Shown here in pieces: positions 92 through 20,000 of a DNA stretch of 20,000 nucleotides. Both the position numbers and the translations under genes were made by a program. Where the stretch lies: assembly GCA_029932605.1 (NCBI GenBank), contig JAOZPT010000047.1, forward strand, positions 1 through 20,000, given 5' to 3'. The stretch's first letter is position 1, and each line of letters starts with the position of its first letter. The DNA is from Candidatus Zixiibacteriota bacterium. Lineage in GTDB: Bacteria > Zixibacteria > MSB-5A5 > UBA10806 > 4484-95. The notes beneath the pieces were generated by a model. That model ran no database searches. It saw only the letters and a list, made by a program, of their open reading frames with translations, and was not told where the DNA came from.

Positions 92-790
92 TTAACTCTC
101 CATCCTGTTACTATCCATCCTCACCTGGTTTGCCAGTCGATGGGCCATTCGGACTGGCTTCGGCAAACGGTATCTATGACAACATCTTAATACTATATCG
201 GTTGCCATATCAAGCTCAATCAAATGCCCAGCTGAGACAAATATAGGTTTGACTTTATCACGTGACCTTAAAACATGACCGACTTTTCTACCCTTATAGA
301 GCAGATCAGATATCGAACCTTTCATTTGAGCTGGTTCAGTAAAGTCGCCAACAAGACGACTTTTAGCGCAACCTATTGAGGGTCTATCCAATAAAATACC
401 GATCATACTGGCGATACCCATACCGCGCGGATGCGCTATTCCATGCCCATCGAATAGCAAAAGGTCCGGCTTATTTCTAAGTTTTTTAAAAACCTTCACT
501 ATTGCCGGTCCCTCACGAAATGCCAGTAATCCCGGGACATACGGAAAATCCGCCTTTTCAACTATAACCGATCTCTCAACCTCTTCAAGCTTGATATAAC
601 TTAACAATATTGCCACAGCAAAATTTTTTCTGCTGGATTTATCATAAGAAATATCAAAGGAACAAATCGATTTGAAATTTTTAAAACGATTTTCCAAACA
701 AAGATACGATAATAACGATTTCTGGAATTCAATTGCACCCTTAATATCTTTATTTCTGCAAATCTTTAAGAAATTATCAAGGACATTCAT
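92..790 (-). CDS. nfi: Endonuclease V (deoxyinosine 3'-endonuclease)
   Basis: 232-aa ORF with EndoV motifs in the canonical order: FDISY (catalytic Asp), FPYVPGLLAFREGP (wedge motif plus catalytic Glu), LLFDGHGIAHPRGMGIAS, SIGCAKSRL, KPIFVSAGH and YRLPKPVRMAH. Confidence 0.95.
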   Translation of the reverse strand: MNVLDNFLKICRNKDIKGAIEFQKSLLSYLCLENRFKNFKSICSFDISYDKSSRKNFAVAILLSYIKLEEVERSVIVEKADFPYVPGLLAFREGPAIVKVFKKLRNKPDLLLFDGHGIAHPRGMGIASMIGILLDRPSIGCAKSRLVGDFTEPAQMKGSISDLLYKGRKVGHVLRSRDKVKPIFVSAGHLIELDMATDIVLRCCHRYRLPKPVRMAHRLANQVRMDSNRMES

Positions 791-2017: not shown

Positions 2018-3850
2018 CTAAAACCTGTGCGTATATCCAATACTTGCTATGTATTCATTAAAATCGGGAGATGAATTGTTGTTATATTTGTAAAAAGACG
2101 ACTTTGCCGATAACCGAATTATATCGACCCTGGTAATTGAATAACTTGATTGAAAGGTCATATTGGTTGCCATAGCCTCTTCTGAATCGGTATAATTAGT
2201 GCCAAGAGAATTCGAGAGATTGCCATTCAGCATTCTATTTGTCAATTGCAAACCAAGACACTTCTTAGTAGTTTTGCCCTGGCTTTCGACATCAACAGTG
2301 TTAAGATTAGTGTTAACCGACATTGACCAGGACCGGCTGAGCATCAACACGAGGGTAATCATGACATTCTGAGTATTCACATCATTACCGCTACGGGTAG
2401 GATTGAGGTCTTTGGAAAACTGGGTTGAATAATTCATAGAAATCGAATGGCTTGAATTAAACATGTTAAATTGATACATCACATTAGCTGCATAACTTGA
2501 ATTCTCATTATGTATCTTACCAATATAAAGCACCGAATCGGGTTCAGACCAGGTAGAATCCTGTTCGTTCCACACCGAATCCTGAACAATCCAGGTAGAG
2601 TCGGATGAGGCATCGTTTTTCATTACATTAAGCATAGCGTTGAATCCTATGGAAATCTGGTTTAAGGGACGGATAGTTGCATTCAATCCATAGGTTGACC
2701 TTTTAGTAGTATTAGTTTTTTGAGAGGCTACATTGTCATTTTGAGCATTAAATGTACCCTGCAGGGAAACCCGGTTTTCAAACAAACGAAAGCCAAGTCC
2801 TCCTTCGATAGTCTGCTTATCGTTCATATTCGAGCTTAAACCAAGTGATGTATAGCCCGGTCCAATATAGGTATAAGCGCCACGGGCATTGAAAATGCGT
2901 TGACTGAAATTTAATTCAGCCGCATAAGCATAATCGAAATTCGAAGAGATACGCGGAGTATAAACTTTTTTAACAAATGATGGTATATCCTCTGAAGCCT
3001 CAGATGAACTATACAGATTACGCGTGTAAGCACTACCAGCCAACTCTCCACGAAAAATCAAACTTCTGCCAAAAAGCTTGAGCACGGTGTTCGCCCCAAC
3101 CACGAGATTCTCCTGAGGTGTAACACCGTATTCTGGTATTGAATCAATGGAAGAAGTGTCTGGTGAAGTCGTAGTATCAACCTCAAGAGAATCGACCTGG
3201 AATATATCAAGAGGTAGTGAACCAACATTATCTTTAACTTTTACAACATTAATATCGAAAAAGGATGATTCCTCTCTTCCAATACCTATCTTAGCCCCAT
3301 ACAGATTCTGAGAATAAACCGAATTATACGCTCCAGCCACAACTTTCCTCTTGGTTTGACCACCAACAGCCTGAAACCTGAAAATGCCCGCATTTATATC
3401 TATCCCGGCACCGCGTATAGATACACCACTTAAAGTATATTTGGACAACTTATGGCTGAAATCGCCTATATGAAGAGTACCCCAACTCCATTGCGGGTGA
3501 ACGGCAAATTGATTGATATGTTGTTTAGCTGAGCTTCCCTCGGTCGAGTAGATGATATTAAGTGAAGCGCTAAAACTTCCAAACAGGGTAAGAGTTGGCC
3601 TTAAAAATATCCGGCCGGTGGTCGATGGCCTACGTGCTTCCCTCCCAGAAACTGAATAATATTCACCATAGGTGCCCAGATCTCCGGTTATTTTCCATAT
3701 TGATTTATCAACCTCCGGCTTAACTTCTGATTCGTACTGACCGCTTAGCGAGCGAGACGTATCCGGTGGTGGTATATCGGTGCTGTCCTGCGCCAATCCT
3801 ATGTTTTCACTAAATAACATTAAAAACGTAACCAATATTATTCTTTTCAC
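2018..3850 (-). CDS. Putative outer-membrane beta-barrel protein of unknown function
   Basis: Signal peptide (MKRIILVTFLMLFSENIGLA|Q), many alternating amphipathic strands rich in G/S/N/T/Y/F, and a C-terminal strand YIASIGYTHRF ending in Phe (BAM beta-signal pattern). Its GTG start overlaps the upstream TGA (GTGA, 3850-3847). Confidence 0.8.
   Translation of the reverse strand: MKRIILVTFLMLFSENIGLAQDSTDIPPPDTSRSLSGQYESEVKPEVDKSIWKITGDLGTYGEYYSVSGREARRPSTTGRIFLRPTLTLFGSFSASLNIIYSTEGSSAKQHINQFAVHPQWSWGTLHIGDFSHKLSKYTLSGVSIRGAGIDINAGIFRFQAVGGQTKRKVVAGAYNSVYSQNLYGAKIGIGREESSFFDINVVKVKDNVGSLPLDIFQVDSLEVDTTTSPDTSSIDSIPEYGVTPQENLVVGANTVLKLFGRSLIFRGELAGSAYTRNLYSSSEASEDIPSFVKKVYTPRISSNFDYAYAAELNFSQRIFNARGAYTYIGPGYTSLGLSSNMNDKQTIEGGLGFRLFENRVSLQGTFNAQNDNVASQKTNTTKRSTYGLNATIRPLNQISIGFNAMLNVMKNDASSDSTWIVQDSVWNEQDSTWSEPDSVLYIGKIHNENSSYAANVMYQFNMFNSSHSISMNYSTQFSKDLNPTRSGNDVNTQNVMITLVLMLSRSWSMSVNTNLNTVDVESQGKTTKKCLGLQLTNRMLNGNLSNSLGTNYTDSEEAMATNMTFQSSYSITRVDIIRLSAKSSFYKYNNNSSPDFNEYIASIGYTHRF
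2519..2602 (-). repeat. In-frame 21-bp (7-aa) tandem repeat x4 with a 42-bp higher-order period
   Basis: Protein DSTWIVQ/DSVWNEQ/DSTWSEP/DSVLYIG. DNA caccgaatc occurs at 2531 and 2573, ccaggtaga at 2549 and 2591, and gaatcctg at 2556 and 2577. Confidence 0.75.
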
Positions 3851-5883
3851 TTTTCACCCGCTTTTTCTGCATTTAATTCAACAATAGCTCTTGCTTCCTC
3901 ATAGCGATGAGCTTTATGTAAAATTTCTATTAACCTTTCCTTTAATATCTTGTTATCAGGCTGAAGATTATAAAGTTTTTGCCATTTGTCACATAAAACA
4001 TCTAGCCTGCCAAGCTTTTGATGTATTCGTATAATGGCATCATAAGCGACATCGCTCTGTTCATCCAATGAAAGCATTCGTTGGTAGCTCTTGAGTGCTT
4101 CAGCATAATTTTCACGGCTCTCAAAAATCTCCGCTAACCCTTCATGAGCCTGTATTGTTTTGGGATAAAGCGAGATTACTTTCTTATATATCTGCAGAGC
4201 CCGGTCATTATCACCACCCTGGCTGAACCATTCCGCATGGTATAGATGCAAAAAGATACTTGTTGGGTAATCCTGAAGATACGATTCAAGCAATATCCCA
4301 AAGTCTTTTCTGGTAATTGATATCTTTATAAAATCCAGGCTTCCTTTGATTATATTTTCTAACTCGACCATCTCATCCCGCATAGTCTCAAACTGTCCCA
4401 TTTTATCCAGTTGAAGTTTCCCATCGTTGTCGGCAAACTCAGCCTGAAATCTATCCTGTAATTCTGCCATCCTCCGGATTGCCAGATCAAGTGCCCGCTT
4501 GTAGGTTTCAACAGACCCTGTTTTATCTCCCTTTATGTAGGCAATCTCTCCCAGCTTGAACCAGGTTGAGGGCTTGTCCGGAGCGTTATTGCGAGCTATC
4601 TCAAGATATGTTTTAGCCGAATCCAGATTGTTCAATTCAAAATATGTAAGGCCAAGTTTGTATACTGGATAGAAATCAGACGGATAAAAATTATAAAATG
4701 ACCAATACAGGTTCAAGGCCTCATTATATTTAGAATTTGCAGAGTATAATTCCCCTAGAGTTTTTAGAGCCTCGATATTCTGATTGTCTATCCTCAGAAT
4801 TGCTTTTAGCTTTTCGATGGCGATGCTGTCACTACCCTCCTGTTTGAAAGTATTGGCAACTGCCAGCTGTACTTCTACATCAAGAGAATCACTCTTAATA
4901 AGTTCCCTGTATATCTCCCGTGCTTTCTGCCAGTTTCCCTCAAGCTCATAAGTAACGGCAATTTTTTTAGTAATGCTCTCATCCTCGGGATAGACCTTCG
5001 CTAAAAGTTCGTATGTCTCACGGATTTTATCCTGACGGTTGAAATTCTGCCAATATTTAACTATCTCCATATAAATCTTTCGCTCTCTGGGAAACCGCTT
5101 GATCAGAGAATCATATAGCGTCATGGCATCGTCAATTTTATTAAGGTAACGGTAAAAAAGCGCCAGTTGGAGGGCTAAATCAATATCATCCGGAGCATGT
5201 CTCTGAATATCCTCCAGGACAGGTAAAGCGATTTCATATTCCTCAAGTTTAACCAGTACATCGAAAAGCGCTTTTTTAAGATTATAATTATAAGGAAATC
5301 TCTCTACACTGTTTTCCAGATGAATTCGGGCTCTCTTATAATCCTGCTTTTCTATCATCAGAACAGCAATATTCACATAGGCTTCCATATTAGTTGAATC
5401 CAGTTCAACAGTATTTTTAAAATAGTCCAAAGCCCGGTCTTTTTTACCCTCTTTTGCCAGGGTTACTCCAAGGTTGAAATATACCATTGCCATCAGTTTT
5501 TTAATCTCCCAATCATCGGGAGATATCTCAAGATACCGTTCAAGTACACTTCTGGATTTGTCATAGCGCTGTTGGTTAGCGTAAAGTTGTCCTAAAAGTT
5601 TGAGAAATTGAGCATTTTTCGGGAATATTTTAATGGTGGTTTCCAACACCTTTATAGCATCAGGAATCTGTTTAACGGCTAAATAAGAGTTAACAAGATA
5701 TTCATAGGCTGTTTTTGAGCGGGGGTTTATTTCGAGGTAATCATTCAGCATATATATAGCCCGTTCGTAATCGCCGATGTTAAAGGCTTGAATTCCCTGC
5801 TCAAGTAGAGATTGAGCCTTAAGAATACCGCAAGTTATAAATAAAATTATAGGTAAGAGAAATAAAACAGATTTACCCCGCAT
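3847..5883 (-). CDS. Exported (probably periplasmic) tetratricopeptide-repeat protein
   Basis: Serial TPR-like units (e.g. AMVYFNLGVTLAKEGKKDRALDYFKNTVELDSTN, TWFKLGEIAYIKGDKTGSVETYKRALDL, AHEGLAEIFESRENYAEALKSYQRMLSLD). Signal peptide MRGKSVLFLLPIILFITCGILKA|Q. The ORF track starts at 5910; ATG 5883 is preferred because GGAG lies 9 nt upstream and the signal peptide begins there. Confidence 0.88.
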   Translation of the reverse strand: MRGKSVLFLLPIILFITCGILKAQSLLEQGIQAFNIGDYERAIYMLNDYLEINPRSKTAYEYLVNSYLAVKQIPDAIKVLETTIKIFPKNAQFLKLLGQLYANQQRYDKSRSVLERYLEISPDDWEIKKLMAMVYFNLGVTLAKEGKKDRALDYFKNTVELDSTNMEAYVNIAVLMIEKQDYKRARIHLENSVERFPYNYNLKKALFDVLVKLEEYEIALPVLEDIQRHAPDDIDLALQLALFYRYLNKIDDAMTLYDSLIKRFPRERKIYMEIVKYWQNFNRQDKIRETYELLAKVYPEDESITKKIAVTYELEGNWQKAREIYRELIKSDSLDVEVQLAVANTFKQEGSDSIAIEKLKAILRIDNQNIEALKTLGELYSANSKYNEALNLYWSFYNFYPSDFYPVYKLGLTYFELNNLDSAKTYLEIARNNAPDKPSTWFKLGEIAYIKGDKTGSVETYKRALDLAIRRMAELQDRFQAEFADNDGKLQLDKMGQFETMRDEMVELENIIKGSLDFIKISITRKDFGILLESYLQDYPTSIFLHLYHAEWFSQGGDNDRALQIYKKVISLYPKTIQAHEGLAEIFESRENYAEALKSYQRMLSLDEQSDVAYDAIIRIHQKLGRLDVLCDKWQKLYNLQPDNKILKERLIEILHKAHRYEEARAIVELNAEKAGEK

Positions 5884-7843
5884 GGACCGCATCTCCACGG
5901 GTGCTTTCATTGCCGGACGAATCCACCGCCTTCACTTTATAGTAGTGTTTTATCGTTCCAGAAGAGTCGATGAATTCAAGCCCTTGCAACGGCGATTTAT
6001 TCAACTTCTTGTAAACACCGGACGGTATATTCGAGCGATAAACATTGTAGCCAATTAGGTCGAAATCTACAACACGTTCCCATTTAATCCTAACACCTTT
6101 CTCCATAAGTTTGACGCTGACATTACGTGGTGATGGTGGCGAGCTGTAATCACGGATTAAAACGGTGTCAATTCTGCCAGGTTTACTCTGATTACCAGCG
6201 GAATCGAAAGCGGTAGCATAATATTGAAATTTACTGCCCTTAACCACAGAGGTATCTTTGAATCCAAATGGCGCCTTATCAAATTCTGCTATCATCTGGC
6301 TTTCTTCTTCATTCTCTTTTTTAAACACTCTATATAAGGCTACATCAAGAGAGGGACTTCTACCGCAGGATATTTTAACAAATCTTCCCTCGACATTCTC
6401 AGCCATGAAAGCCTGTGGCGGCAATGGCGGATCGTCATCGGGAACAAAAACCTCAATTGTGGTCTTCTCGCTTTCGTTACGAGAACGATCAACGGCGGAA
6501 ACACCAACCAAAAAACTCTTACCGGGAGTCAAACCAGCATCCTGATAGCCGCTGTCAATAAAAACAGTATCTTTATACGGTTCATGAATGATACGCGGTT
6601 GAATGTCCTCAGTCTGGCCACGGTAGATATAATAACCAACGACGTCGCTAGCCCGTGAGGGTGTCCATTTAAGTTTCAGGATTCTGCTTTCGATCTCAAA
6701 TGTTAAGTTCGTCGGTGAATCAGGAGGTGTTTTATCCTCTCCTATTGTTGCAATGGCATTGCTGCGTGGACTCTCATTATTCGATTTATCAACGGCTGTA
6801 ATTGCATAAAAATACTGAACTCCATTAGTAATTGTGGAATCAATATAAAAAGGCGATTCAACGGAAATGAGATTTTGGTTCAGTTTCTCAAAATCCTTAT
6901 CCAGACCGAGCGAACGATAGACATAGTAGCCAACAACATCCAGCTCAACGCTCATATTCCACGACAGGCCAACAACTCCATCGCCAGATTCAACAGATAA
7001 ATTTTGAGGTATTGAAGGAGCAACTATATCTTCTGGAATTGCCGTAATCGTTTGGGATGGCTGACTTTGGCGACCAAGAGGATCGACAGCGGTAACATAG
7101 TATGAGTATTCCGTTCCGTTTTTCAGCCATAAATCGATATACTCCGGTTGATACATATTATCCCGAATAATAGGTTTCCTATTAACTCTTTCAAATGAAC
7201 CCTCTCCCTCCTTGCGGTAAACAAAATATTGAACCGCCAGGTCACTGTAACCTTTCCACTTGGGGTAATCCCAGGTCAACACAAGCCTTGCATCTCCTAC
7301 CTCCGCCTTCACGTCATAAGGTGGATCAGGATATATTTCAGTAACAGCGGTCTTTTCCCTTATTGTAAACAATTCCTTACCACGGCTATCGACATAAACC
7401 ACTTTATAAATATACTCGCTGCCATGCTCAACACCAGTATCGAGAAACCATCGTCCTGTTAGGCGAGCAACACGAGGACTCAATAGCGAATGTGCAATAC
7501 CTACAAATTCATCACCCCGCAGTTTGCGCAGGATTTCAAAGGGTTCGGTTGTGTTAAAAGCTTTTGAAATCATCTGCCAATCCTCGCCCAGAACCGCCTT
7601 TACCTGATTTGGATCAATAACCGGTTTTACTGGAGAATCTTTGGTGAGAAGTTCAAAGTCGTTGTCAGTTGGCAACGGTCCCTTACGGTAAACATGGAAA
7701 GCCTCTGTTGAGCGCGGAGCTACGGTTAGAAATAGAACCACCGAATCGCCACTGGCCATAGTTATAAGCTCCCGTTTTACCTGCGCTTCCGATATTCCAA
7801 ATAACAAGATAGTTATAATGAAAATTAACCAAAGCTTCTTCAT
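5873..7843 (-). CDS. Exported fibronectin type III repeat protein (six FN3-like domains)
   Basis: Signal peptide MKKLWLIFIITILLFGISEA|Q. Six FN3 end-motifs: YIYKVVYVDSRGKE, YSYYVTAVDPLGRQS, YFYAITAVDKSNNES, FLVGVSAVDRSRNES, FQYYATAFDSAGNQS and HYYKVKAVDSSGNES. Most are preceded by P..P-type linkers, LxW and (G)YxVYR motifs. SD GGAGGAG at 7855-7849. Confidence 0.9.
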   Translation of the reverse strand: MKKLWLIFIITILLFGISEAQVKRELITMASGDSVVLFLTVAPRSTEAFHVYRKGPLPTDNDFELLTKDSPVKPVIDPNQVKAVLGEDWQMISKAFNTTEPFEILRKLRGDEFVGIAHSLLSPRVARLTGRWFLDTGVEHGSEYIYKVVYVDSRGKELFTIREKTAVTEIYPDPPYDVKAEVGDARLVLTWDYPKWKGYSDLAVQYFVYRKEGEGSFERVNRKPIIRDNMYQPEYIDLWLKNGTEYSYYVTAVDPLGRQSQPSQTITAIPEDIVAPSIPQNLSVESGDGVVGLSWNMSVELDVVGYYVYRSLGLDKDFEKLNQNLISVESPFYIDSTITNGVQYFYAITAVDKSNNESPRSNAIATIGEDKTPPDSPTNLTFEIESRILKLKWTPSRASDVVGYYIYRGQTEDIQPRIIHEPYKDTVFIDSGYQDAGLTPGKSFLVGVSAVDRSRNESEKTTIEVFVPDDDPPLPPQAFMAENVEGRFVKISCGRSPSLDVALYRVFKKENEEESQMIAEFDKAPFGFKDTSVVKGSKFQYYATAFDSAGNQSKPGRIDTVLIRDYSSPPSPRNVSVKLMEKGVRIKWERVVDFDLIGYNVYRSNIPSGVYKKLNKSPLQGLEFIDSSGTIKHYYKVKAVDSSGNESTRGDAVHAG

Positions 7844-7845
7844 GA

Positions 7846-10800
7846 TTACTCCTCCGGTATATAAATACTTGTCCAGAATTCCTCGGATACAAGCCCAATA
7901 CCATTTATCGTTCTTACACCTATATAGTATGTGTTACCACCGGTCATCCCTAAAATCCCATACATGATCCAACGTTCATAAACCAAACCGGAACCATACC
8001 AATCAAAGACATCCGTTGAACCATTTGAGGTTCCAATGGCATATTCGATATCTTCAATACCTGATTCAGGATCAGATACATTCGAAAACACTAACCTTAG
8101 AAGTAAAGGACCACGGCCACCTTGACGCTCCAAGGACGGTGATACAATTGGAGTAATAGGGGGTGTCGAATCGATGATATATGGACCGGTTACACAACTG
8201 CCGCTGATCATGCCGGCATTATTCACTGCTCGCAAACTTATATAACAGGTTGTTCCCTGAGCAAGTCCTAAATCCGGCAGGACCCAGGATTCGGCTACAC
8301 CAATATCCGAATTATCAAAATCAATAGTGTCATTGTTCCAATCAACGATATCGGTACCACCAGGCACGGTACCCACTGCTATCTGATAACCTCTCAGGTC
8401 TGTTTCGTAATCATGAGATCTCTCCGAGAAGATTAAATAATTTGTACCCGCTGGCAATCCATAACATAGGGCTGCAGTTGGATCTGATGGCGGACTTGGA
8501 TCTGGAGGTATGTGTGGACCACTACGAAATGGCTCACTTGTCAGTCCAGCATAGTTTATCGCTTCTACATCTATATAGAACGAATCAAGATATTCAACGA
8601 TACCACCGGTAACGGTTACTCCAAGATCATTTCCAATAAAAATCCAGTCATCTGTCCTAACTGTCGTATCGCTGGCGGATATAACTCTATATTGATACCC
8701 AAGGATATACGATTGTGAATCGGAACTTGCATACCATAATGTGGTAATAGATGGTGGCTCACCTGGCACGTGCGGTTCATAATAAGGCATAGATGGCCCT
8801 ATAGGAGGTACAAGTTCGGGCGGCAAAGGAACGGGAGGAATAACTGTTGGTGGAGTATATGGATAAAACTCTGGCCCTTCCCACTCATAGTAATATCTAG
8901 CGGTAGGAGTTGGTGGTGGTGATGTGTCAATGATTAGATTGGCTTTGCCATTCGCACTCCACATATTTTCACCATTCCGGGCTACCACATTAAGACAATA
9001 AAACCCTCCATGTTGCAATTGCAGGTCATATATTGTGGCTTCCGTGAGACCACCCGCTGAAGTCCAGCCAAGTATCGAAGTGTCACCAGGTGAAGTACCG
9101 ATCGAATACAGGTATTCCACTATACCTGATTCGTTATCGTATGACGACCAGCTTGCCGTAGTATAATCTGTAAACGGTGAGTAATAGTAAAGAGTGTGAC
9201 CGGCACTATATCTACTTTCGTAATACGGGAATGTAACTGTCGGTGTGGCGGGTGCGGTAACATCACCACCCATATTGTAATTTTCATATGAACCAACTCC
9301 TCCTCCACCATCGGGTGAGAAGTAAGTGACAAAGTTAACCTGCCTTTGGTTTGTGTAGCCCGCACCTGCTCGAGCCCTCAGAGTTAATGTCCAGTTACTG
9401 GATGTCTGGTCCTCCTGTTGGAGGAAATACCTCACCATATTCATCCGTCGGCCAATGCTCTGTAGGCCAATCTCCGGAGGTGTTGGATGTTCTTGCTCAT
9501 TAAACAAGATAGCATATTCAGATATACCGCGCGGATGAGAGGCTGACCAATTCATTGCCCCGTAATTATAATAATCTGCATTATAAGTAGTTACATTGAT
9601 CGTATTAAGTTGAGGTACTTGTAAATCGTTCATTAAATCGGCTTTTTTGCTGATAACCTGATCATGTGGAATCAGCCATTCAACCGTATCGGGCTGGCTC
9701 TCCTGCCATTCACCATAAAGTGCCAGAATATCGTATAGTTTTTCCGTAAGAATGACTTTAGCATCAAAAATAGGATCGATTGCCGTGGTATATGCCGATT
9801 GGGCATAACCGACATTGTTTAATTCATCCCTGAGTTGGACAGGTGATTCGCTGGTAATTGTAGCGGTTGCAACCGAATCTAAATGCTGGAAACCTAAATA
9901 GCACATATCGAACCATAGTTGCATACCGACAGCCAATGAAAGCTCTCTTTTTACACCAACGCTTAATGTATTCCATCTCGAATTGAATGCTGCTAAACTA
10001 TCTTCTATGCCACCTACCATTCTGAGCTTGAGCAATGCCTCTTTCCTCGCCCAGGTCAAATCTCGCAATTCTGGTAAAAGTGTATCGCCGATAGGATGCA
10101 TGGAAAGATGAAGTGACTTAAAAGATAAGATCGCTTGTAAAGTCTCATGGAGTTCTTGAAGTTCACTAGCTTTTTCACGTGCATATTCCTGCTCCTGACG
10201 ATTATAAGACACGCGATTAAAATAAAATTGGCCAATCTTATACATCAAGTTCGCATAATTTTGCCCAACTTGATCAAAGCTAATTTCTCCACCAGATCCG
10301 CTTAATGCATCATCAACAGACTGAATAGCACTTTCTAAAGTGTTAATTTTATCGACAATAAGCGCTTCATATTCTCCGAAGTCTTCCTCAGCCTGTTCCA
10401 AAACATCTTTGTTACTATTAGCTAAAATCTCATCAAGAGTGAAATCAGGCTGGCTGATAGCTCTTTTATATGTCGTATCGCCCTGGACATATTCCTCTGT
10501 CACAGGGTCATCAAGGTTGTATGATCTAACAGGGTCGCCCAATACATATTCAAGCTCTGGTATCCCGGCCAAGGTGGCTGATATCTGATTCAGACGATTG
10601 GAAATCTGATTACGATCATCGTTCGATGATTCAACCAAATTATCCACTCGATTTCTAAGCGTCCTTATAGAATCACGTGCAGCATGTGGTGGAGCATCAG
10701 GGGAGAAAAAGAAGTTTTCGTAAATGTAGGGTATTTGCACTATTTCCTGCAGATAAGAACTACGAAACATAGCCCATTGCGAAGAACAAATATCCCAATC

Positions 10801-13800
10801 AAAAAATCCATGATCCTGGCACCAATTCCAATTTATTGCAGCCGGAACCTCACCATAGCTAAGTTCCATTTCATCTAATTCACCAACATCGGCTAAGAAG
10901 AGTATTACAAACCACTGTAGCCAAGGATTATCACCCCTTAATAGCTGGCCAGCCTTGTAAAGATTATTAAATGCTTCAACCAACTCCTCGTCGGTTAAAA
11001 GGAATGATTGAACGATAGCCTCATCAATGGCATCCTGAGCCTCCTCTGCTTCCTCTTCCATATCCTCACCAATACTTTTAGCCTCGTCAATTAAGTCATC
11101 CATCTCCGAGTTTCGCCCCGTTCCTCCAGAAATACTCCCATCCTCGATTTTACACCAGACACTGGCCGATTTGCAGATACCAAGAACACATCCCTTTATT
11201 CCGGCCAAGCCAAAGATATACCAGCTCCCATCAGCGCCTATCAGGGCTGCCTCCAACCAACCCTTAGCCGATACAAGACCCCAAAACGCTTCAGCAGAAA
11301 CCCAAACCTTGGCATACATGCCCCAGGAAACGTTTACCACATACCAGGCCATAGCCTCGAAACCCGCGTTCACCTCAAGGACCCAGATGCTCCAATGATA
11401 AGATATGCTCATCTGGATAAAGAAACCGGGATTGCCAATAAACAACTCAGCATTAGCGTCGAGGAGATGCATAATTGATAAGTCAATCGCACCCTTAATC
11501 CCCCAGGCATCCTCACCGTAAACATAGAAAGCTAACTCGGTTTGACCGTTAATGAAATCCCCCACGGTAACATCGACAGTTATGTTACCCTCAGCATAAC
11601 CGCTCATGAAACCAACACACAGATATATCGAACCATTCAAATAGGTATCCTGATTGAGAAGTACTACTCGTCCATCAAGCCTGAAATATCCCTCTGTAAT
11701 TGTAAGAAGAACGCTACCAGAGACCAGATAATCTTGGACGATGGCAACCTGGGCATATAACAACACAGCAAAACTACCAGGGTCGCTGATACGTCCGCTG
11801 GCTGGATTATCACCGCCAAAGCCCGCCATTTCTCTTACAAGAGCCAGATCGCACTCGGTGGGATTATAGAAGAACCCTCCACCTACACCTGTTAAAACTA
11901 AACATGGCGGTATAGTAATCGAAACATCCATAGCTACGAATAAACCAAAACTGGTTTCATCGTTTATATGAGCAATCTTACCCACCACCACAATTCCATA
12001 GGTGTTAACAAATAACCCTTGCCCTCCCATAAGCAGTGAGAATCCCTCATTTCCAACCTGTTCATATGTAAGGTCTATACTAAATTCAACGAGATCTGGT
12101 ATGTTAACATAAGCGCTATCGATAATGATATGAGTGGAGTTTTCTGTGGTATAGGTAAGAAATTCCCTGATACCTCCTCCTCCAACTCCAGCTATATCAA
12201 TAGAAGCACCAAACCTGAAGAAGCTGGTTACATGAATAGTCTGCGTTTCCGGTGGATTGGGACCCTGGTCCCCCATGCTTTCACATGAAGCGCCGCCTGT
12301 TACCTGAATATCCGTTGGTACACTACTATACCCTATATTGCTTATGGTTATCGTTACGATATCTGTTATAGTAATATCACCACCGGTAATGGAGCCAGCC
12401 AGGTTTTCAACGTTACCACTTGAGGTTACATGTAAATCTTCAAATTGCAATCCTCCACCGACACCTTCCACATTCACATTTAATTTCCCCGAGATAGAAA
12501 GTGCAAAATCGCTTGTCTCAGAATCAAATGAGGCAAATATCAATGAATCAAGCTTGAGAGCTTCCCAGTTTACATCAAACATACCCGGTGCAGATTGCAG
12601 ATTCCCCCAGCGGACAGTTCCATCAAACTTGATCTCCAATCCAGGAGTTACAACACCACCCGAACGAGTTCCTATATGAAGCCATTTATTTGCATCACTC
12701 ATGAAATAGATATCTGCAACCATCTGTAACGAGCTTTGCTCTAAGTTGCCAAAGTTGAATCCTAAAGCGGCATAGGTGGGATCAAATGTGGCTACCCAGA
12801 GATCAAATTCACTCTGGTCATCGCCACCCAATCCCGGTGTTTCATCAATAATGCTGATATTAGCACCACCAGAAACCGTTCCGTCAGGATTAATCGAGAA
12901 ATTGAAAGTCTGCTTTGAAGTATCACATGGTTCAGGCAGTCTGGCAAAACCCTCTACGACTAAAGCACTGGACTGTATTCCAAGCTCGGTTAAGGCTATA
13001 TAGTCATCAACTATATAAAACTCACCACTTATAAGGCTAACACCAGCAATACTGACTGAGCCATCAGTGCCGATTTTTAAGCCATGAAACGAGCTCGTAT
13101 TATTGAGAAATTCAAGCTCACCGCTTAGGGATAAATAGAATATATTGTTTTCATAATCGAAAGAAATTCCGGGATAACCCTCTATATCTTTAATTTCAAA
13201 TTGAGCGCTGAACAATTCAAAATTCAGGAAATCCTCAGGAGTTGTTATATTTATATCCGGAATCGTTACCCCATCAGGTGAAATCTGCAAACCGGCAAAT
13301 GAGACAGAAAACCCATCACCAAAATCTGTTAGGCTCAAAGTTCCGGAGAGCGTTAGAGCAATACTTCCCTCCGGGAAGCTCAAATCAAAAGCCGGGTTGT
13401 CCGCAATCGGCTCTGGTCTGAACGTTGCAATGTACAATGGCAATGCTGCATCGGGTAGATGAGAAATATCGAAACCAAAACCGAACTCGCCATTTTCCCA
13501 TACAGCCACATAATGGATCGCCGCCGTGTCGGATTCACTACTGAAAAATTGAGTCTGGATATCTCCGGATAATCTAAATGATAAATCATCGACGCCAAAA
13601 GTCGCATTAACGCCACCCACTTTGAAATTAAACATGTCACCGATAGGAACATCAGCGATATAATCATCAAGTTGCTGGTAATATTCGCTGAAAGTACCCA
13701 TGTTCACAGAACCGGAAAATCCCTCTGTGGAGATAACCAACGAATCTAAACTTACATTGACACTGCCAAGCGCTTCGGGTAAAGCTATCCGTGCACTGGC

Positions 13801-16800
13801 TATAAGTGCAGGAGCTCCCTGAAAATGAGAGAACAGCAACTGCGTAAGGTCTAGAGGGATACCAGCCGATGCTAATGATAAAAGTGACTCTGCCCCCTCA
13901 GGCGGTGAAACATCGATTGAGCCCTCAACCAATTCAAAAGTAGAAACATTGACGGTGACACCAAAAGCTATACCAAATGACGGTGGCTCCGGTGCTTCAT
14001 ATTGAAGTGCTGGAATGACAAGCTGAACCTGCTCACCCGGACGGGTCGAGATGTGTAACCCATTCGAAACCGGCTCAGTTTGGACTAAAACCTCCTCGCC
14101 ATCTTTTAACACAATGTAAGCGATACTGGTATCGGGTAATGGTAGTTTTTCGGGAAGGGGTATTATGCCAAACAAATCACCGGGATGGAAACCATCGCTA
14201 TCCAGTACGGCAACGAGTGTTTCATCCAGGAAAAACTCAGCCTGGCCTGATGTGACACCGAAAGGAGAAAAACCGATATTGAATGACTCAGAGAACAGGC
14301 ATCGGATATTGGTATAATCCTCTCCATTAAAGCGTATAAACACATCGGTTTCACCGCTGGCGGCAAAGCCATTGGAGCTCAGTGAGATATTTTCCGGAAG
14401 GGTTAACCGTACGCCCGTAACTTCGGTAATAGGAGCGGATATATCAACAGCGCTCCACTCCAACCCGCCAAGCTCAGTTATAAACTTAAGGGCAAATTGA
14501 CTGGTAAACGTGGCCTCGCCCGAGACAATATTGAAATCGGTTATGTCGAATACCAGATTGTTGAAGTTTACACCTACAGTGGCTCCCTCGGATAGAATCA
14601 GCGTGTTAAAGCCGTTTATCAGCAAACCGCTGGAATTAAGAACAGCGTTGTTGATAGTGAAAACAAGGACAGGGTCATCCTGAGGAATCTGCCACCGGAA
14701 AGGATCGGTAACGGCAATTTCACCGTCTAATATTCGAGCGTTTATCAAATCAAAGCTAAGACTTCCTGCGGCGGTGATTGTATCGCCCTCGGAAGTGCCA
14801 GGAATACGCAACACACCGCTTAAGTCCATAATTGCACTCTGCTGGTCACCAGCTATTGCCAGTTGAACATTTGAGTTGGTTACAGCAAGTTGCCCAAATC
14901 CAATATCAAGTGGACAACCTGGTATGAAATCGGTTAAGGTTCCAGTTATATGACCATTGCTATCGATTGTAAAAGCTGTCGACATGACATCGGCCACACC
15001 ACTGTCTGCATCACAGCGGAGCACCTCCGGCATCTGTATATCGCCCCTGAAAGTTATATTGAAGTTTTGAATATCGTCTATTACAGCCAGGTCACCGCCG
15101 ATTTCCCGAACAAAGAAATTCAAACCGCCACCAAGTGGAAGCAGTAAGCCCGGTAAATCGAACTCCTTGGTTTCAAGAGAACCGGTGATTTTGCCATTCA
15201 GATAACCGGCATTTAAGATGGTTACTTGTGGGTTTCGTAAATCAGGTGGTACGAATTCCGGGAACTCGGGGAAGCTAAGCTCGAAATCAAAAGCAAATCC
15301 CCAATCCTCAAGAGGACCTCCGCTGAAATTGAACCAGTCGAACGTAAAGGCACTCATGCGAAAAGCTAAAGGCTTTAGCCCAAATCCATAAAATGTATAA
15401 GCAGAATCGGAAAGCTCTGGAATCGAGTATTCGGGGATATAAATACCATTTTTACTGATTACAACACCCGACATCTGGGGAAGCTGGAAACCGATGTCGG
15501 GGAAACCAAAACCTAAGTCCACACCGATTTCAAAATCCCAGCCGGCAATAAGATCATAAGTCAGTGATGGTATAGTGAAATTCGAGAAATACATGTCCAG
15601 CGTGCCAAGGTTAAGTGCAGGTAGCTGGGTTGGAGTATCAACATCAAATCCTCGAATTTCAAGGCCATATTCGGTGATACCAATTTCCGTTGAGGCTCCA
15701 TAGCTGGTGGTATCATCGAGGTTCAAACGAATACCACCGGTGAGACTTAAGTCAAATGAGATGTCCAGTGGTATAAATTGAGTTTCAAACGAACCGGCGA
15801 TATTAGAAATACTCAATGTAAGGTTATCGCTTCCGTTAACCAAGGGTATTTCCTGAGCCACTGGAAAATCAATCGAACCCAGCAAACGGCCATCCGGCAT
15901 AAGTGTTAGTTGGAAAATCTCATCGCTAATACTGGTATCAAACAGTTTTAACCGTCCTCCCAACTGGAAAACATTCAAACCATTAACATCACCGTATACC
16001 AGGTTTCGCAATTCAAAGGGAATTCCCAGTGAACTCAAATCAAAATCAGCATACTGTTCCGGCGGAACCGTGACATTAATTGAACCATCAACCAGATTCC
16101 TTGATACGGGGTCGATAGTGAAATCAAATTCGATATTTAACTGCGGTGGCTGAGGACGGCCAAGCTGTAACGATGTCATTACCAAGCTCACCGGCTGGCC
16201 AGGGCGAGTATAAAGACGTAAACCGCTGTCAACAAACTCGTGATCTACCAGCAATTCATCGCCATCTTTAATCTGCAAATAAGCAATGTCCTCGACCGGT
16301 AAACCCAGGTGCTCCGGTAAAAAAGCCATTCCAAAATAGCTCAAATCAGGGAAGAAACCACGTGAATCTATCAAGGCGATACAATGCTCACCGGAGAAAA
16401 ACTCCAATTGCCCAGATGAAACCTTGAAGGGGCTTAACGAAAAAGCAAAATCCGAAGAATATACTCCTGATAACGATGGTAAATCATAACCATCGAAACG
16501 AAGATGAATAGCCGAAGAACCACTGACAGCAAATCCATCAGCATCTATCGAGATCGAATTTGGCAGCTCCAGTAAAATCCCCAGCTCTTCGGTAAGCTCT
16601 GTACCCTGTGGTACAGCCTGGTAAACCAGTTCATCTCCATCAAATGCCACCTTGAAAGCAAACGGCATATCAAAAGACACATTACCGGAATTTATTCTGA
16701 AATCATCCCAACATACTGCCAAATTATCGAAAGTCACACCCAAAGTTGCCTCATCGCCAAGTTGTAACGACTGCCTGCCATTGATGACGATGCCTTCCTC

Positions 16801-19482
16801 ATTGATATCAGCGCTACCAATATTAAACGAGAGCACCGGTACAGATGGAGGTACCTCCCATACAAAAGGCGTGTTTATATCACCCTCAAGAGAAAGCAAA
16901 CGATTTTGAATAAACTCATAGCTAAAAGATGCAGTAGCGTTTATCGGTTCGCCTGAAGGACTGTTGAAACCAAGAAAAGCTGTTCCATCAAGCAATATCC
17001 TTTGCTCGTCATCTTCAAGGTAGAAGTTAAGGTTCGAATTTGTGATCGCTAAGGACAATAGTCCAACATGAAGTGAACAGGGCGGAACAATGTTTTCTAT
17101 AATCCCATTTAATCGGCCATCTCCCAAAATCTGTATTGAGGTTGACAGTAGATTAAGAGCTTGGTCGCCACCTTCACAGGAAAATGCTGGCGGTAATTCA
17201 AGCATCCCGCGCAAGCGAACATCGGGTGAAAACATTAGCTCTCCATCCTCTATTGCAGCGCCAAGAGAACCGGACAGCTCCATAACATTCATGACGATAA
17301 ATTCACCTAAAGGCAAACCTAGGCCCGGCTCTGCAAATGAAGTAACCGGTATTGTAGCATTGAAGTTGCCATTAACAAACGAAGCATTATTTATGATAAT
17401 TTCAGGATCCCGTAACTCTATAGGCGTACCCTCCGGGAAATCGGGAAAACGTAGACGCAGATCAAAATCGAAACTGAATTCTGCCGGTAATTCCGGATCC
17501 CAATCAAACCAAGAGAACGATAAAGCGGGAAAACTAAGAGCAAGAAATTCAAGTTCGAATCCACCAAGCTCGACCCGCGGCAGATACAAAGACGGGATAC
17601 TGGTCTCAGGAATAGTAAACCCATCAGGACCAAATGTAACCCCGCTAATGGGAGGTAAAGAAAGGCTGTCGAAAGCAGGAAAACCAAATGCAAGGTCCAT
17701 ACCAAGCGAGAAATCCCAATTGCCCGCTATAAATGATAATGACGATAATGAAAGATTACTCAATTGAAGATTTAGCCAGCCTAAGTCAATAGCCGAAAAA
17801 TCCAAATCGCCACGGGGTACAAATGATTCAACTGAAATTCCCGATGATGAAATTTGTAAAACGATATCGGCGCCAAAACTGGTCGATTCATCAGGTTGAA
17901 AATCAAGCCTACCTGTGGCAATAATATTATAATCAATGTCACCAGTGCTTAAATTTGCATTAAAATTACCGGATAACCCTGAAAGAATTAAAACAAACCT
18001 ATCTGATTCATCAACCAAAGGTATAGAAACCTCACCGGCACAGGTTATCTCACCTGTTAATACGCCACCGGCCAATAAAGAAAGGTCAACCAGATTACAT
18101 TCGGATTGAATTCCGAATAACTCTATGATGCCGCTTAGACTGATACCGGGTTCAGAAAAAGTGACCGAGGCTTGAGTTACAACCAATTGAGCCATCTCGT
18201 CGCCAATTGTAAATACTGGTGATGACGGCGAACCGGTAATTGAAGCCTCACCTGATAGACCACTGGCGGTTAAGCTAATGCGGCCAATTAGCTCATATTG
18301 ACCGTAATCACCCGGCAGGTTGAGTATCCCCCCTATGGTAACATGGTTAGAAGGATCAAATTCAATATCCTGAGGGAGAAAGTATTCACCCGTCAGTTCC
18401 GTTGGTATATCCCCGGTATTCAAATCCCCCGATATACTTCCTGATAAAAATGTTGGTATCTCATAATTGCCTTTTTGCAGGATGAGGTCACTGACAAACA
18501 CAGAGACAGACACCTCGAAACCACCCGGTAAATTAAGCAGTAGTTCCGTTGAACCATTTAAAGTATAAACAAAGTCATCCTCGAAAACAGTTAGAGCATC
18601 CAAATTGACCAAATAAACAGCACCTGGCTCGATGACAAGAGTGTCAAAAGGAAGTTCCGCGGGCTCTCCACCACTACTACCATAAAAGAACGACCATATT
18701 TCGCTTTTACCATCATTAGAAGTCGGTGCAAAACCATTTTGATCCGTGGCAGTGATCTGCCAGACATATTCTTTGCCAACCTCAAAGGGAAGCCCATCAA
18801 AAGGATAGTTATAGAAAGATAAGCCCGTGATAGTTTCCTCATGATGCGGATAGTTTGCCTCTATCGCCTGTTGCAGCGATTGACCCGGTAAACGCTCAAC
18901 TATAAGCAGGTGATAGTTAATTATATAATCAGGCGGGGTTATCACTGGTGTCCATTGAAACATGGGATAGGGCATGGTCACCGTTGAACCATTAGAAGGT
19001 AAAAGCAATTGAGGCGGGTCTGGATAAACAATAAAGAACGGAGCATCGTCCTCGGCTAAAGTCTCAAACCCGCTTATAAGGCTAACGGTTAATTTATAAT
19101 CCCCCTCGGGAAATCTGCCCGAGCGAACGACCATATCCTCAATTGACCTGTCGTAATCAACATCACGCCATTCTAAAAATTCAGTGGAATAAAAAGTCTG
19201 CCGGAAAGGGCCAATTAGCCTTATCAAATCACTTTGGGCAACCAGGATCTGGCCAAATCTTCGGCTGTCAATAACTACCCGAAAATGAAACTCAACCGGA
19301 CCTATATTCTGACAGAAAACGTTTAAAGCACCTACTGAAGGGTCACGTTCCCAATCGCTGAAATAAGGACTTGGATATGGGTTAATATTCAATGTTGCAT
19401 TCCATTGAGCTGAAGCGGAAACTGTAACTATAAAAAATATAACCAGACAAAACCAAAGCTTTTTAGTGTATCTCATAACCAT
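7846..19482 (-). CDS. Giant (~3878 aa) exported multidomain protein: TANFOR-like N-terminus, duplicated beta-rich region, helical region, C-terminal FN3/Ig-like repeats
   Basis: Uninterrupted 11.6-kb ORF with signal peptide MRYTKKLWFCLVIFFIVTVSASA|Q. The likely start is ATG 19476, with AAGGGA 6 nt upstream. The N-terminal pattern PYPSPYFSDW...GRFPEGDYKLTV...PPQLLLP...FQWTP...YVWQITATD...GKSEIWSFFY resembles a TANFOR domain plus FN3. An internal duplication and C-terminal DxESGIxxYxxxIGTxxG repeats are visible. Confidence is high for the CDS and moderate for the domain names. Confidence 0.85.
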   Translation of the reverse strand: MVMRYTKKLWFCLVIFFIVTVSASAQWNATLNINPYPSPYFSDWERDPSVGALNVFCQNIGPVEFHFRVVIDSRRFGQILVAQSDLIRLIGPFRQTFYSTEFLEWRDVDYDRSIEDMVVRSGRFPEGDYKLTVSLISGFETLAEDDAPFFIVYPDPPQLLLPSNGSTVTMPYPMFQWTPVITPPDYIINYHLLIVERLPGQSLQQAIEANYPHHEETITGLSFYNYPFDGLPFEVGKEYVWQITATDQNGFAPTSNDGKSEIWSFFYGSSGGEPAELPFDTLVIEPGAVYLVNLDALTVFEDDFVYTLNGSTELLLNLPGGFEVSVSVFVSDLILQKGNYEIPTFLSGSISGDLNTGDIPTELTGEYFLPQDIEFDPSNHVTIGGILNLPGDYGQYELIGRISLTASGLSGEASITGSPSSPVFTIGDEMAQLVVTQASVTFSEPGISLSGIIELFGIQSECNLVDLSLLAGGVLTGEITCAGEVSIPLVDESDRFVLILSGLSGNFNANLSTGDIDYNIIATGRLDFQPDESTSFGADIVLQISSSGISVESFVPRGDLDFSAIDLGWLNLQLSNLSLSSLSFIAGNWDFSLGMDLAFGFPAFDSLSLPPISGVTFGPDGFTIPETSIPSLYLPRVELGGFELEFLALSFPALSFSWFDWDPELPAEFSFDFDLRLRFPDFPEGTPIELRDPEIIINNASFVNGNFNATIPVTSFAEPGLGLPLGEFIVMNVMELSGSLGAAIEDGELMFSPDVRLRGMLELPPAFSCEGGDQALNLLSTSIQILGDGRLNGIIENIVPPCSLHVGLLSLAITNSNLNFYLEDDEQRILLDGTAFLGFNSPSGEPINATASFSYEFIQNRLLSLEGDINTPFVWEVPPSVPVLSFNIGSADINEEGIVINGRQSLQLGDEATLGVTFDNLAVCWDDFRINSGNVSFDMPFAFKVAFDGDELVYQAVPQGTELTEELGILLELPNSISIDADGFAVSGSSAIHLRFDGYDLPSLSGVYSSDFAFSLSPFKVSSGQLEFFSGEHCIALIDSRGFFPDLSYFGMAFLPEHLGLPVEDIAYLQIKDGDELLVDHEFVDSGLRLYTRPGQPVSLVMTSLQLGRPQPPQLNIEFDFTIDPVSRNLVDGSINVTVPPEQYADFDLSSLGIPFELRNLVYGDVNGLNVFQLGGRLKLFDTSISDEIFQLTLMPDGRLLGSIDFPVAQEIPLVNGSDNLTLSISNIAGSFETQFIPLDISFDLSLTGGIRLNLDDTTSYGASTEIGITEYGLEIRGFDVDTPTQLPALNLGTLDMYFSNFTIPSLTYDLIAGWDFEIGVDLGFGFPDIGFQLPQMSGVVISKNGIYIPEYSIPELSDSAYTFYGFGLKPLAFRMSAFTFDWFNFSGGPLEDWGFAFDFELSFPEFPEFVPPDLRNPQVTILNAGYLNGKITGSLETKEFDLPGLLLPLGGGLNFFVREIGGDLAVIDDIQNFNITFRGDIQMPEVLRCDADSGVADVMSTAFTIDSNGHITGTLTDFIPGCPLDIGFGQLAVTNSNVQLAIAGDQQSAIMDLSGVLRIPGTSEGDTITAAGSLSFDLINARILDGEIAVTDPFRWQIPQDDPVLVFTINNAVLNSSGLLINGFNTLILSEGATVGVNFNNLVFDITDFNIVSGEATFTSQFALKFITELGGLEWSAVDISAPITEVTGVRLTLPENISLSSNGFAASGETDVFIRFNGEDYTNIRCLFSESFNIGFSPFGVTSGQAEFFLDETLVAVLDSDGFHPGDLFGIIPLPEKLPLPDTSIAYIVLKDGEEVLVQTEPVSNGLHISTRPGEQVQLVIPALQYEAPEPPSFGIAFGVTVNVSTFELVEGSIDVSPPEGAESLLSLASAGIPLDLTQLLFSHFQGAPALIASARIALPEALGSVNVSLDSLVISTEGFSGSVNMGTFSEYYQQLDDYIADVPIGDMFNFKVGGVNATFGVDDLSFRLSGDIQTQFFSSESDTAAIHYVAVWENGEFGFGFDISHLPDAALPLYIATFRPEPIADNPAFDLSFPEGSIALTLSGTLSLTDFGDGFSVSFAGLQISPDGVTIPDINITTPEDFLNFELFSAQFEIKDIEGYPGISFDYENNIFYLSLSGELEFLNNTSSFHGLKIGTDGSVSIAGVSLISGEFYIVDDYIALTELGIQSSALVVEGFARLPEPCDTSKQTFNFSINPDGTVSGGANISIIDETPGLGGDDQSEFDLWVATFDPTYAALGFNFGNLEQSSLQMVADIYFMSDANKWLHIGTRSGGVVTPGLEIKFDGTVRWGNLQSAPGMFDVNWEALKLDSLIFASFDSETSDFALSISGKLNVNVEGVGGGLQFEDLHVTSSGNVENLAGSITGGDITITDIVTITISNIGYSSVPTDIQVTGGASCESMGDQGPNPPETQTIHVTSFFRFGASIDIAGVGGGGIREFLTYTTENSTHIIIDSAYVNIPDLVEFSIDLTYEQVGNEGFSLLMGGQGLFVNTYGIVVVGKIAHINDETSFGLFVAMDVSITIPPCLVLTGVGGGFFYNPTECDLALVREMAGFGGDNPASGRISDPGSFAVLLYAQVAIVQDYLVSGSVLLTITEGYFRLDGRVVLLNQDTYLNGSIYLCVGFMSGYAEGNITVDVTVGDFINGQTELAFYVYGEDAWGIKGAIDLSIMHLLDANAELFIGNPGFFIQMSISYHWSIWVLEVNAGFEAMAWYVVNVSWGMYAKVWVSAEAFWGLVSAKGWLEAALIGADGSWYIFGLAGIKGCVLGICKSASVWCKIEDGSISGGTGRNSEMDDLIDEAKSIGEDMEEEAEEAQDAIDEAIVQSFLLTDEELVEAFNNLYKAGQLLRGDNPWLQWFVILFLADVGELDEMELSYGEVPAAINWNWCQDHGFFDWDICSSQWAMFRSSYLQEIVQIPYIYENFFFSPDAPPHAARDSIRTLRNRVDNLVESSNDDRNQISNRLNQISATLAGIPELEYVLGDPVRSYNLDDPVTEEYVQGDTTYKRAISQPDFTLDEILANSNKDVLEQAEEDFGEYEALIVDKINTLESAIQSVDDALSGSGGEISFDQVGQNYANLMYKIGQFYFNRVSYNRQEQEYAREKASELQELHETLQAILSFKSLHLSMHPIGDTLLPELRDLTWARKEALLKLRMVGGIEDSLAAFNSRWNTLSVGVKRELSLAVGMQLWFDMCYLGFQHLDSVATATITSESPVQLRDELNNVGYAQSAYTTAIDPIFDAKVILTEKLYDILALYGEWQESQPDTVEWLIPHDQVISKKADLMNDLQVPQLNTINVTTYNADYYNYGAMNWSASHPRGISEYAILFNEQEHPTPPEIGLQSIGRRMNMVRYFLQQEDQTSSNWTLTLRARAGAGYTNQRQVNFVTYFSPDGGGGVGSYENYNMGGDVTAPATPTVTFPYYESRYSAGHTLYYYSPFTDYTTASWSSYDNESGIVEYLYSIGTSPGDTSILGWTSAGGLTEATIYDLQLQHGGFYCLNVVARNGENMWSANGKANLIIDTSPPPTPTARYYYEWEGPEFYPYTPPTVIPPVPLPPELVPPIGPSMPYYEPHVPGEPPSITTLWYASSDSQSYILGYQYRVISASDTTVRTDDWIFIGNDLGVTVTGGIVEYLDSFYIDVEAINYAGLTSEPFRSGPHIPPDPSPPSDPTAALCYGLPAGTNYLIFSERSHDYETDLRGYQIAVGTVPGGTDIVDWNNDTIDFDNSDIGVAESWVLPDLGLAQGTTCYISLRAVNNAGMISGSCVTGPYIIDSTPPITPIVSPSLERQGGRGPLLLRLVFSNVSDPESGIEDIEYAIGTSNGSTDVFDWYGSGLVYERWIMYGILGMTGGNTYYIGVRTINGIGLVSEEFWTSIYIPEE
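13800..18140 (-). repeat. Protein-level tandem duplication, 2 x ~721-726 aa, inside the giant ORF
   Basis: Colinear matching anchors: IPLVDESD/IPLVNGSD (offset 2175 nt), NWDFSLGMDLAFGFP/GWDFEIGVDLGFGFP (2178 nt), IAYLQIKDGDELLV/IAYIVLKDGEEVLV (2163 nt) and GIPFEL/GIPLDL. Boundaries are approximate. Confidence 0.88.
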
Positions 19483-19916: not shown

Positions 19917-20000
19917 CGGAGGACGAGGGATTCGAACCCCCATGGCCTTGCGGCCGGCGGATTTCAAGTCCGCTGCCTTACCAGTTAGGACTAGTCCTCC
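19917..20000 (-). tRNA. tRNA-Ser, anticodon UGA (84 nt, long variable arm, CCA not encoded)
   Basis: Reverse complement GGAGGACTAGTCCTAACTGGTAAGGCAGCGGACTTGAAATCCGCCGGCCGCAAGGCCATGGGGGTTCGAATCCCTCGTCCTCCG. It has acceptor stem GGAGGAC/GTCCTCC plus G discriminator, anticodon stem GCGGA/TCCGC with loop CTTGAAA, variable arm GGCC-GCAA-GGCC and T-loop GTTCGAATC. Confidence 0.95.

Follow-up and report, generated by a model that had tools for sequence, protein, structure and literature searches.

The four-gene operon and its surroundings

The window, i.e., the whole stretch of 20,000 nt that was analyzed, comes from a Candidatus Zixiibacteriota bacterium (contig JAOZPT010000047.1), whose genome is 99.96% complete. 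Four tightly packed ORFs lie on its minus strand in the order giant protein, FN3 protein, TPR protein, and barrel, with the following neighbors.

92-790, minus strand: endonuclease V, downstream of the barrel gene on the same strand
877-1773, minus strand: GT2 glycosyltransferase, downstream of the barrel gene on the same strand
2018..3850, minus strand: outer-membrane beta-barrel, 610 aa, GTG start (ORF and AlphaFold2 model)
3847..5910, minus strand: TPR protein, 687 aa when counted from 5910, with 5883 the likelier start (ORF and Pfam/NCBIfam TPR)
5873..7843, minus strand: FN3-array protein, 656 aa, Sec-type signal (ORF and Pfam fn3)
7846..19482, minus strand: giant exported protein, 3878 aa (ORF)
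19917..20000, minus strand: tRNA-Ser(TGA), 434 nt upstream of the giant gene, at the contig end

The first-pass annotation of this DNA had reported four co-oriented genes with junctions of 2, -11, and -4 nt, and the layout was borne out. The giant and FN3 genes are separated by a 2-nt gap, the TPR and barrel genes overlap by 4 nt, and the FN3 and TPR genes overlap by 11 nt if the TPR protein starts at its third ATG (5883), a start that the reported junction requires, versus 38 nt with the longest start (5910). Between the barrel gene and the ordinary downstream genes (GT2 glycosyltransferase and endonuclease V) lie 244 nt. The barrel is patchy in the phylum of the host, being found in 13 of 101 genomes and in neither of two same-family genomes; since a tRNA-Ser(TGA) gene also lies upstream of the operon, this gene may be an insertion or integration site. 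In the host, both the barrel and the N-terminal module of the giant protein (N-module) are single copy.

As had been proposed, all four proteins carry Sec-type signal peptides, recognized by eye from a basic N terminus, a hydrophobic core, and a cleavage site between Ala and Gln. Their predicted mature forms all begin with Gln, and Gln-first mature proteins match the Bacteroidetes Q-rule. The giant protein ends in WTSIYIPEE and the FN3 protein in RGDAVHAG, and the earlier statement that neither has a recognizable surface-attachment domain agrees with our searches, in which no T9SS C-terminal domain, autotransporter, SLH, or sortase model of Pfam/NCBIfam matched any of the four operon proteins. 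Besides, hydropathy gave no C-terminal anchor in the giant protein, in which the peak 19-residue window past the signal peptide (KD 1.9) is internal, at residue 2512.

Predicted folds of the barrel and the giant protein

The barrel, which ends in Phe, matched no Pfam or NCBIfam family and belongs to no characterized one. We found 108 homologs, essentially all unnamed; the Atlas neighbors are all hypothetical proteins, and the closest named relative is from a Zixibacteria bacterium (68%). The AlphaFold2 model (66-row alignment; pLDDT 82, pTM 0.71) backs the barrel assignment, with 26 strands counted from its element list, no plug, no POTRA domain, and disordered N-terminal residues 16-47. Conserved motifs such as PQEN, GPGYxSLG, and DNV lie in or beside loops that standard topology would place outside. 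The barrel also carries eight matches to the O-glycosylation sequon D-(S/T)-(A/I/L/M/T/V), several of them in low-confidence loops.

Both fold searches ranked MtrB first (Foldseek TM 0.52; Z 21.9, rmsd 5.6, 469 aligned residues). The runner-up had a Z of 16.8, ushers formed the second-best Foldseek group (TM about 0.42), and LptD ranked far below MtrB. Like MtrB (PDB 6R2Q; available text of PMC7198977), the protein is predicted to be a 26-strand plug-less barrel and is encoded with a separate partner, but the two share only 13% identity, the partner module here consists of two Ig domains and belongs to a giant protein, and the likeness may reflect strand number only. A porin-cytochrome was considered and rejected, since none of the four operon proteins contains a CxxCH heme motif; the barrel is thus no electron conduit and at most sheath-like.

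Two-partner secretion (type Vb, TpsB/TpsA) comprises a 16-strand Omp85 barrel with POTRA domains and a cargo bearing a beta-helical TPS domain. Our barrel likewise adjoins a giant putative cargo with a conserved N-terminal module and a variable, sometimes toxic, C terminus, but differs in its 26 predicted strands, its lack of a POTRA domain or Omp85 match, and the Ig fold of the N-module. It resembles the chaperone-usher proteins FimD and PapC as a large barrel that would handle Ig-fold proteins, whereas it has no internal plug, NTD, CTDs, or usher family match and is accompanied by no chaperone or pilin genes.

The giant protein is strongly acidic (515 D/E versus 151 K/R) and had no sequence match in Pfam, NCBIfam, or the PDB (0 hits in the PDB search). 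It can be divided as follows.

19408..19482, minus strand: signal peptide, residues 1-25, cleaved after ASA and before Q (by eye)
18679..19407, minus strand: N-module, residues 26-268, two tandem Ig/FN3-type beta-sandwiches (model and profiles)
15943..18147, minus strand: beta-rich repeat 1, residues ~446-1180 (all-beta model, alternating hydrophobic pattern)
13783..15942, minus strand: beta-rich repeat 2, residues ~1181-1900 (36% identical to repeat 1 over 719 columns)
11233..13782, minus strand: further beta region, residues ~1900-2750 (language-model look-alike of DUF6603, a lead only)
9883..11232, minus strand: probable helical stretch, residues ~2750-3200 (judged from composition)
7849..9882, minus strand: C-terminal region, residues ~3200-3878 (conserved across giants of this class; resemblance to FN3/Ig by eye only)

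Residues 26-1190 were modeled with a pLDDT of 91, the N-module being predicted as a pair of consecutive Ig/FN3 sandwiches (with best Z scores of 11.4 and 9.8) and repeat 1, with confidence, as all-beta. Both repeats, each of about 720 aa, are hydrophobic on average with strongly alternating hydrophobicity (ratio 1.51 versus 1.00 ± 0.07 in shuffles; 1.30 in the barrel). Foldseek with residues 26-1190 returned matches of TM at most 0.13 only (teneurin/Rhs sheets and FN3 arrays); in a wider fold search, N-module matches filled the listing, and among the matches listed there was no repeat fold and no TamB/AsmA. Residues 1880-2830 had DUF6603 (PF20248) as language-model neighbors, with a score of 0.92 that carries low recognition value, and no Pfam match. 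The C-terminal region reached only 2.8 bits against our own FN3 profile.

This protein belongs to a class of about 3,500 to 4,100 aa, conserved at full length in several phyla, and a metagenome scan for further giants added one locus. A 6,410-aa homolog (L163:2-19234) has five copies of the beta-repeat, so that the length of the proposed beta rod differs between genomes. In another giant homolog (L144:1172-12853, G038:C46), an in-frame TAG lies inside the N-module match. We rejected the idea that the giant protein is a polymorphic toxin: its C-terminal region matched no toxin domain or T9SS tail in Pfam/NCBIfam and is conserved across the giant class, and the next gene downstream encodes a conserved FN3 protein, not an immunity protein.

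Conservation, co-divergence, and fusion of the barrel and N-module

The barrel-anchored survey covered 80 of 97 barrel relatives in species genomes, from taxa titled Zixibacteria, Ignavibacteria, Calditrichota, Gemmatimonadota, Bacteroidota, WOR-3, Eisenbacteria, and Kryptoniota. An N-module or giant body was present in 62 of the 80 barrel loci, and 16 of the 18 misses were loci under 18 kb. An FN3 homolog was found in 53/80 and a TPR homolog in 8/80. When only loci of at least 18 kb were counted (n = 41), the numbers were 39 for the N-module or giant body, 33 for FN3, and 4 for TPR, and in the host's own phylum (n = 15) they were 15, 9, and 0, respectively. Of 20 loci chosen because their giants are very large, 7 had the TPR gene. 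Thus, the TPR protein is an accessory found mainly beside giants of about 4,000 aa, and the FN3 protein is a frequent but not obligatory partner. That the genes form a module conserved in several phyla of the FCB group is supported; the co-occurrence of all four that had been suggested held for the barrel with the N-module but was incomplete for FN3 (53/80) and rare for TPR (8/80), and an obligate four-gene system is rejected on these counts. The conserved core is a pair, the barrel and the two-Ig N-module of 245 aa. Barrel, giant, and FN3 genes were also present in a cultured environmental strain, Runella sp. SP2, on its plasmid pSP2_2 (NZ_CP031032.1).

Among the matches listed for 401 genomes of the phylum Bacteroidota, 185 genomes had the barrel, 142 the N-module, 129 both, and 203 neither, counts in which kin are not independent and for which a few profile rows were drawn from the same genomes. 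Genomes with a close barrel (E < 1e-55) had the N-module in 68 of 68 cases, and it lay on the same strand within 20 kb in 83 of 90 close-barrel loci, again among the matches listed. On the same basis, only the module was detected in 13 genomes, and only a distant barrel in 56. Three toxin-tipped relatives (L096, L097, and L104) had no barrel within the 20 kb fetched.

Pairwise identities of the barrels and of their partner modules were strongly correlated (Spearman rho 0.81 over 93 de-duplicated pairs; permutation maximum 0.20), and the nearest neighbors of barrel and module agreed in 79 of 93. Four same-genome paralog pairs remained scoreable after de-duplication, and cognates tracked cleanly in two and partly in two. 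Such co-divergence shows co-inheritance, not contact. Furthermore, the N-module is fused to the N terminus of the barrel in five natural proteins, at the following positions.

L056:3470-6838, N-module-barrel fusion
L059:7067-11269, N-module-barrel fusion
L062:3404-6166, N-module-barrel fusion
L063:1542-4928, N-module-barrel fusion
L067:8207-10849, N-module-barrel fusion

Three of the five have an insert between the two Ig halves. In four of the five loci, a stand-alone N-module protein is also encoded immediately upstream of the fusion, an arrangement not accounted for by a simple one-plug model.

Beyond the N-module, barrel partners have little in common: they range from 235 to 6,410 aa, and their unrelated C-terminal parts hold carboxypeptidase-regulatory-like repeats, RCC1, peptidase C25, toxins, or nothing recognizable, which makes the N-module the constant part. 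Individual cases include a peptidase C25 domain (L048:4664-7090) and RCC1 repeats (L141:11366-14413), so that enzyme and propeller cargoes occur beside the giants, as well as a colicin/pyocin-type DNase tip (L100:13925-19105) and a deaminase tip (L096:8694-11867). At L100-L101, a split barrel gene lies beside a transposase-like ORF.

This range of partners bears on the possibility that the giant protein stays inside the cell as a periplasmic bridge, docking to the barrel from below and guiding lipid or other hydrophobic cargo along a beta-groove, as in TamB/AsmA or LptA-LptD. Its repeats are indeed hydrophobic with the alternation described above (1.51 versus 1.00 ± 0.07), and LptD is also 26-stranded (available text of PMC13721041). 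However, the giant protein lacks an anchor for the inner membrane and its signal looks cleavable, the giant body is missing from most barrel partners, and those tipped with a DNase or deaminase must leave the cell. Besides, the module is patchy (13/101 genomes of the phylum and 0/2 of the family), and LptD falls far below MtrB as a structural match. We regard such a bridge as improbable.

Export route and alternative explanations

The kinship of the giant protein with TANFOR proteins, which the first-pass annotation had hinted at, was upheld in a remote form. TIGR02542 (cutoff, 67 bits) had no match in the giant protein or the host genome, toxin-tipped relatives reached only 20 to 32 bits, and the 401 genomes gave subthreshold matches in eight genomes, one of them false (in a ribosomal operon). 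A profile built from the barrel-neighbor proteins of the first 80 loci alone nevertheless matched 10 of the 11 TIGR02542 matches found in the 401 genomes, with E values of 6e-17 to 6e-62, a link that is not circular. Since the profile recovers TANFOR matches, the N-terminal region of the giant protein is, by sequence, a remote TANFOR homolog, although the giant is not a toxin. The TANFOR-type proteins that the profile matched include some with DNase and deaminase tips.

According to the available text of Jana, Salomon and Bosis 2020 (PMC7073777), TANFOR proteins are hypothesized to be exported by the T9SS; T9SS substrates are enriched near TANFOR genes, the T9SS is present in >95% of such genomes, and the class includes antibacterial toxins. 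The giant protein resembles those described there in its large size, Sec-type export signal, homologous N terminus followed by FN3-type domains, nearby FN3 genes, and T9SS-bearing host. It differs in falling below the TIGR02542 cutoff, in lacking a toxin tip and an immunity gene, and in coming from outside Bacteroidota proper. The word "barrel" occurs 0 times in the main text of PMC7073777, in whose neighbor tables the barrel may appear under a hypothetical-protein label; the barrel-module pair was not described in the literature that we searched, nor in the available text of PMC13721041, PMC9239204, and PMC12419801. The TANFOR-type cargo class is known; none of the systems compared accommodates the barrel family or its pairing with the module. 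The barrel, which has no assigned family and, among the matches listed, occurs in 185 of the 401 genomes sampled from the phylum Bacteroidota, is a candidate partner for TANFOR-class export; for that export, PMC7073777, the one paper on the class that the searches found, offers the T9SS as a hypothesis.

The operon had been put forward as a candidate self-contained system, with the suggestion to test its independence of T9SS genes. Independence was not found, and SprA in every barrel-bearing genome counts against a self-contained system. SprA was present in 185/185 barrel-positive genomes versus 313/401 overall, in 67/67 close-barrel genomes tested, and in 10/10 genomes picked by hand, and the barrel was found in 0/88 SprA-negative genomes. 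Among barrel hosts we found none free of T9SS; even the genome behind a locus with a Chromatiales title gave a strong SprA match. The host itself has SprA, 8 PorV-family matches above the cutoff by their own score and one more counting neighbors, and 67 TIGR04183 tail matches above the cutoff, none of them on the operon contig. TIGR04131 (type B tail) and GldM had no host match, with their controls also silent, and the host possibly has a T9SS (SprA, many PorV-family barrels, 67 tails) without a canonical motor, a reading in which the silent GldM control must be borne in mind. However, 84 of the 88 SprA-negative genomes come from a single sampling stratum and probably from a single clade. Few independent events therefore underlie the contrast, and the census neither proves nor excludes T9SS dependence.

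It is conceivable that the giant protein, though it has no standard tail, passes out by way of the wide SprA pore, the barrel being a cognate shuttle or dock that binds the N-module. PorP/SprF barrels serve type B T9SS substrates in this way, as shuttle or surface dock. The SprA census (185/185) and the host's own SprA, PorV-family matches, and 67 tails are consistent with such assistance, as are the conserved barrel motifs in or beside the loops predicted to face outward; since SprA is near-universal in these phyla outside the one stratum, co-occurrence is weak evidence. Some barrel loci also adjoin T9SS substrates or a PorP/SprF gene. The T9SS substrates near TANFOR genes and the >95% figure in the available text of PMC7073777 point the same way. 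On the other hand, type A and type B tails are absent from the giant protein and from 31 partners (T9SS tail models matched none of the 31 partner proteins tested, nor further N-module proteins), the fusions put the module at the barrel N terminus, which is the periplasmic end, and the barrel is far larger than PorP/SprF or PorV and matches none of their models. We judge this route to be rather unlikely. At one locus (L126:7405-10616), a close barrel lies directly behind a PorP/SprF-OmpA gene, and the N-module protein is encoded elsewhere in the genome.

The reading that we prefer, and to which we give an even chance, is that the N-module docks in the barrel, which would serve as a dedicated socket for export or anchoring of the giant protein. 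It is supported by linkage, co-divergence, fusion, sequence repeats, and the lack of a T9SS tail; because the barrel travels with the front module of the giant protein across lineages, it likely grips this module. All four proteins would cross the inner membrane by Sec, and the N-module would enter the barrel from the periplasmic side, as suggested by the fusion topology and by analogy with MtrA. MtrB is a 26-strand sheath that traps folded MtrA (~80 × 30 × 35 Å) by stalled excretion (available text of PMC7198977), and the two-Ig N-module appears comparable to MtrA in size. The N-module might thus be both address and retention plug in the barrel. The remainder of the giant protein would be a beta rod that varies in length and has its functional end at the C terminus; in this operon it probably acts as an adhesin or surface scaffold, and in some relatives from Flavobacteriia the end would be a toxin tip. 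The FN3 protein may be an adaptor and the TPR protein a chaperone of the largest cargo class. Since MtrB, as given in the same text, has an outer aperture of ~15 Å and holds on to its partner instead of letting it go, the analogy does not imply passage of 3,800 residues.

In its widest form, the proposal is of an unnamed secretion or display system of the FCB group, in which a 26-strand MtrB-like barrel would recognize a TANFOR-type two-Ig module and export or retain giant adhesins and polymorphic toxins that have no T9SS tail. The same barrel and module would also have been recruited to feed signals into a FecR/CHASE2 cAMP relay; we offer this tentatively, as somewhat short of an even chance. 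If true, it would be an outer-membrane export or anchoring mechanism unlike the systems compared and linked to an unstudied cAMP signaling operon. With the minimal pair pinned down (barrel and 245-aa module), the question is directly testable in a cultured strain.

This relay concerns a distant tier of barrels of 800 to 920 aa, which were the only barrels in 117 of the 401 genomes. Their operon encodes a small N-module protein (~345 to 425 aa), a FecR-domain protein, the barrel, and a CHASE2 adenylate/guanylate cyclase, a layout seen in 15 of 16 distant-barrel loci inspected (L107-L122, e.g., L111:5975-12668) and missing from one. The 14 best module scores among 238 ORFs all fell on the upstream small ORF, and one more was near background. 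The cyclase-like last gene was recognized in 15/16 by a common C-terminal motif, and Pfam found CHASE2 plus cyclase in 2/2 loci tested and FecR in 4/4. The operon was not described in the literature that we searched.

These loci raise a further possibility, namely that the barrel and N-module form a trans-envelope sensor, with the giant protein as its sensory or binding arm. The cyclase-like gene that ends 15 of 16 distant loci, together with FecR, speaks for a signaling role of the pair, whereas FecR and cyclase genes are absent from the ORF list of the 20,000-nt window, a second, distant barrel is absent from the host genome, and the cyclase operon is confined to the 800-to-920-aa tier. For the giant operon we thus consider a receptor role very improbable. 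The distant homologs adjoin FecR and CHASE2-cyclase genes like the FecR/TPR/CHASE2 adenylate-cyclase clusters in the available text of PMC9239204, unlike the giant operon, which lacks both; NsrA of S. meliloti is grouped with these clusters, going by a cited title.
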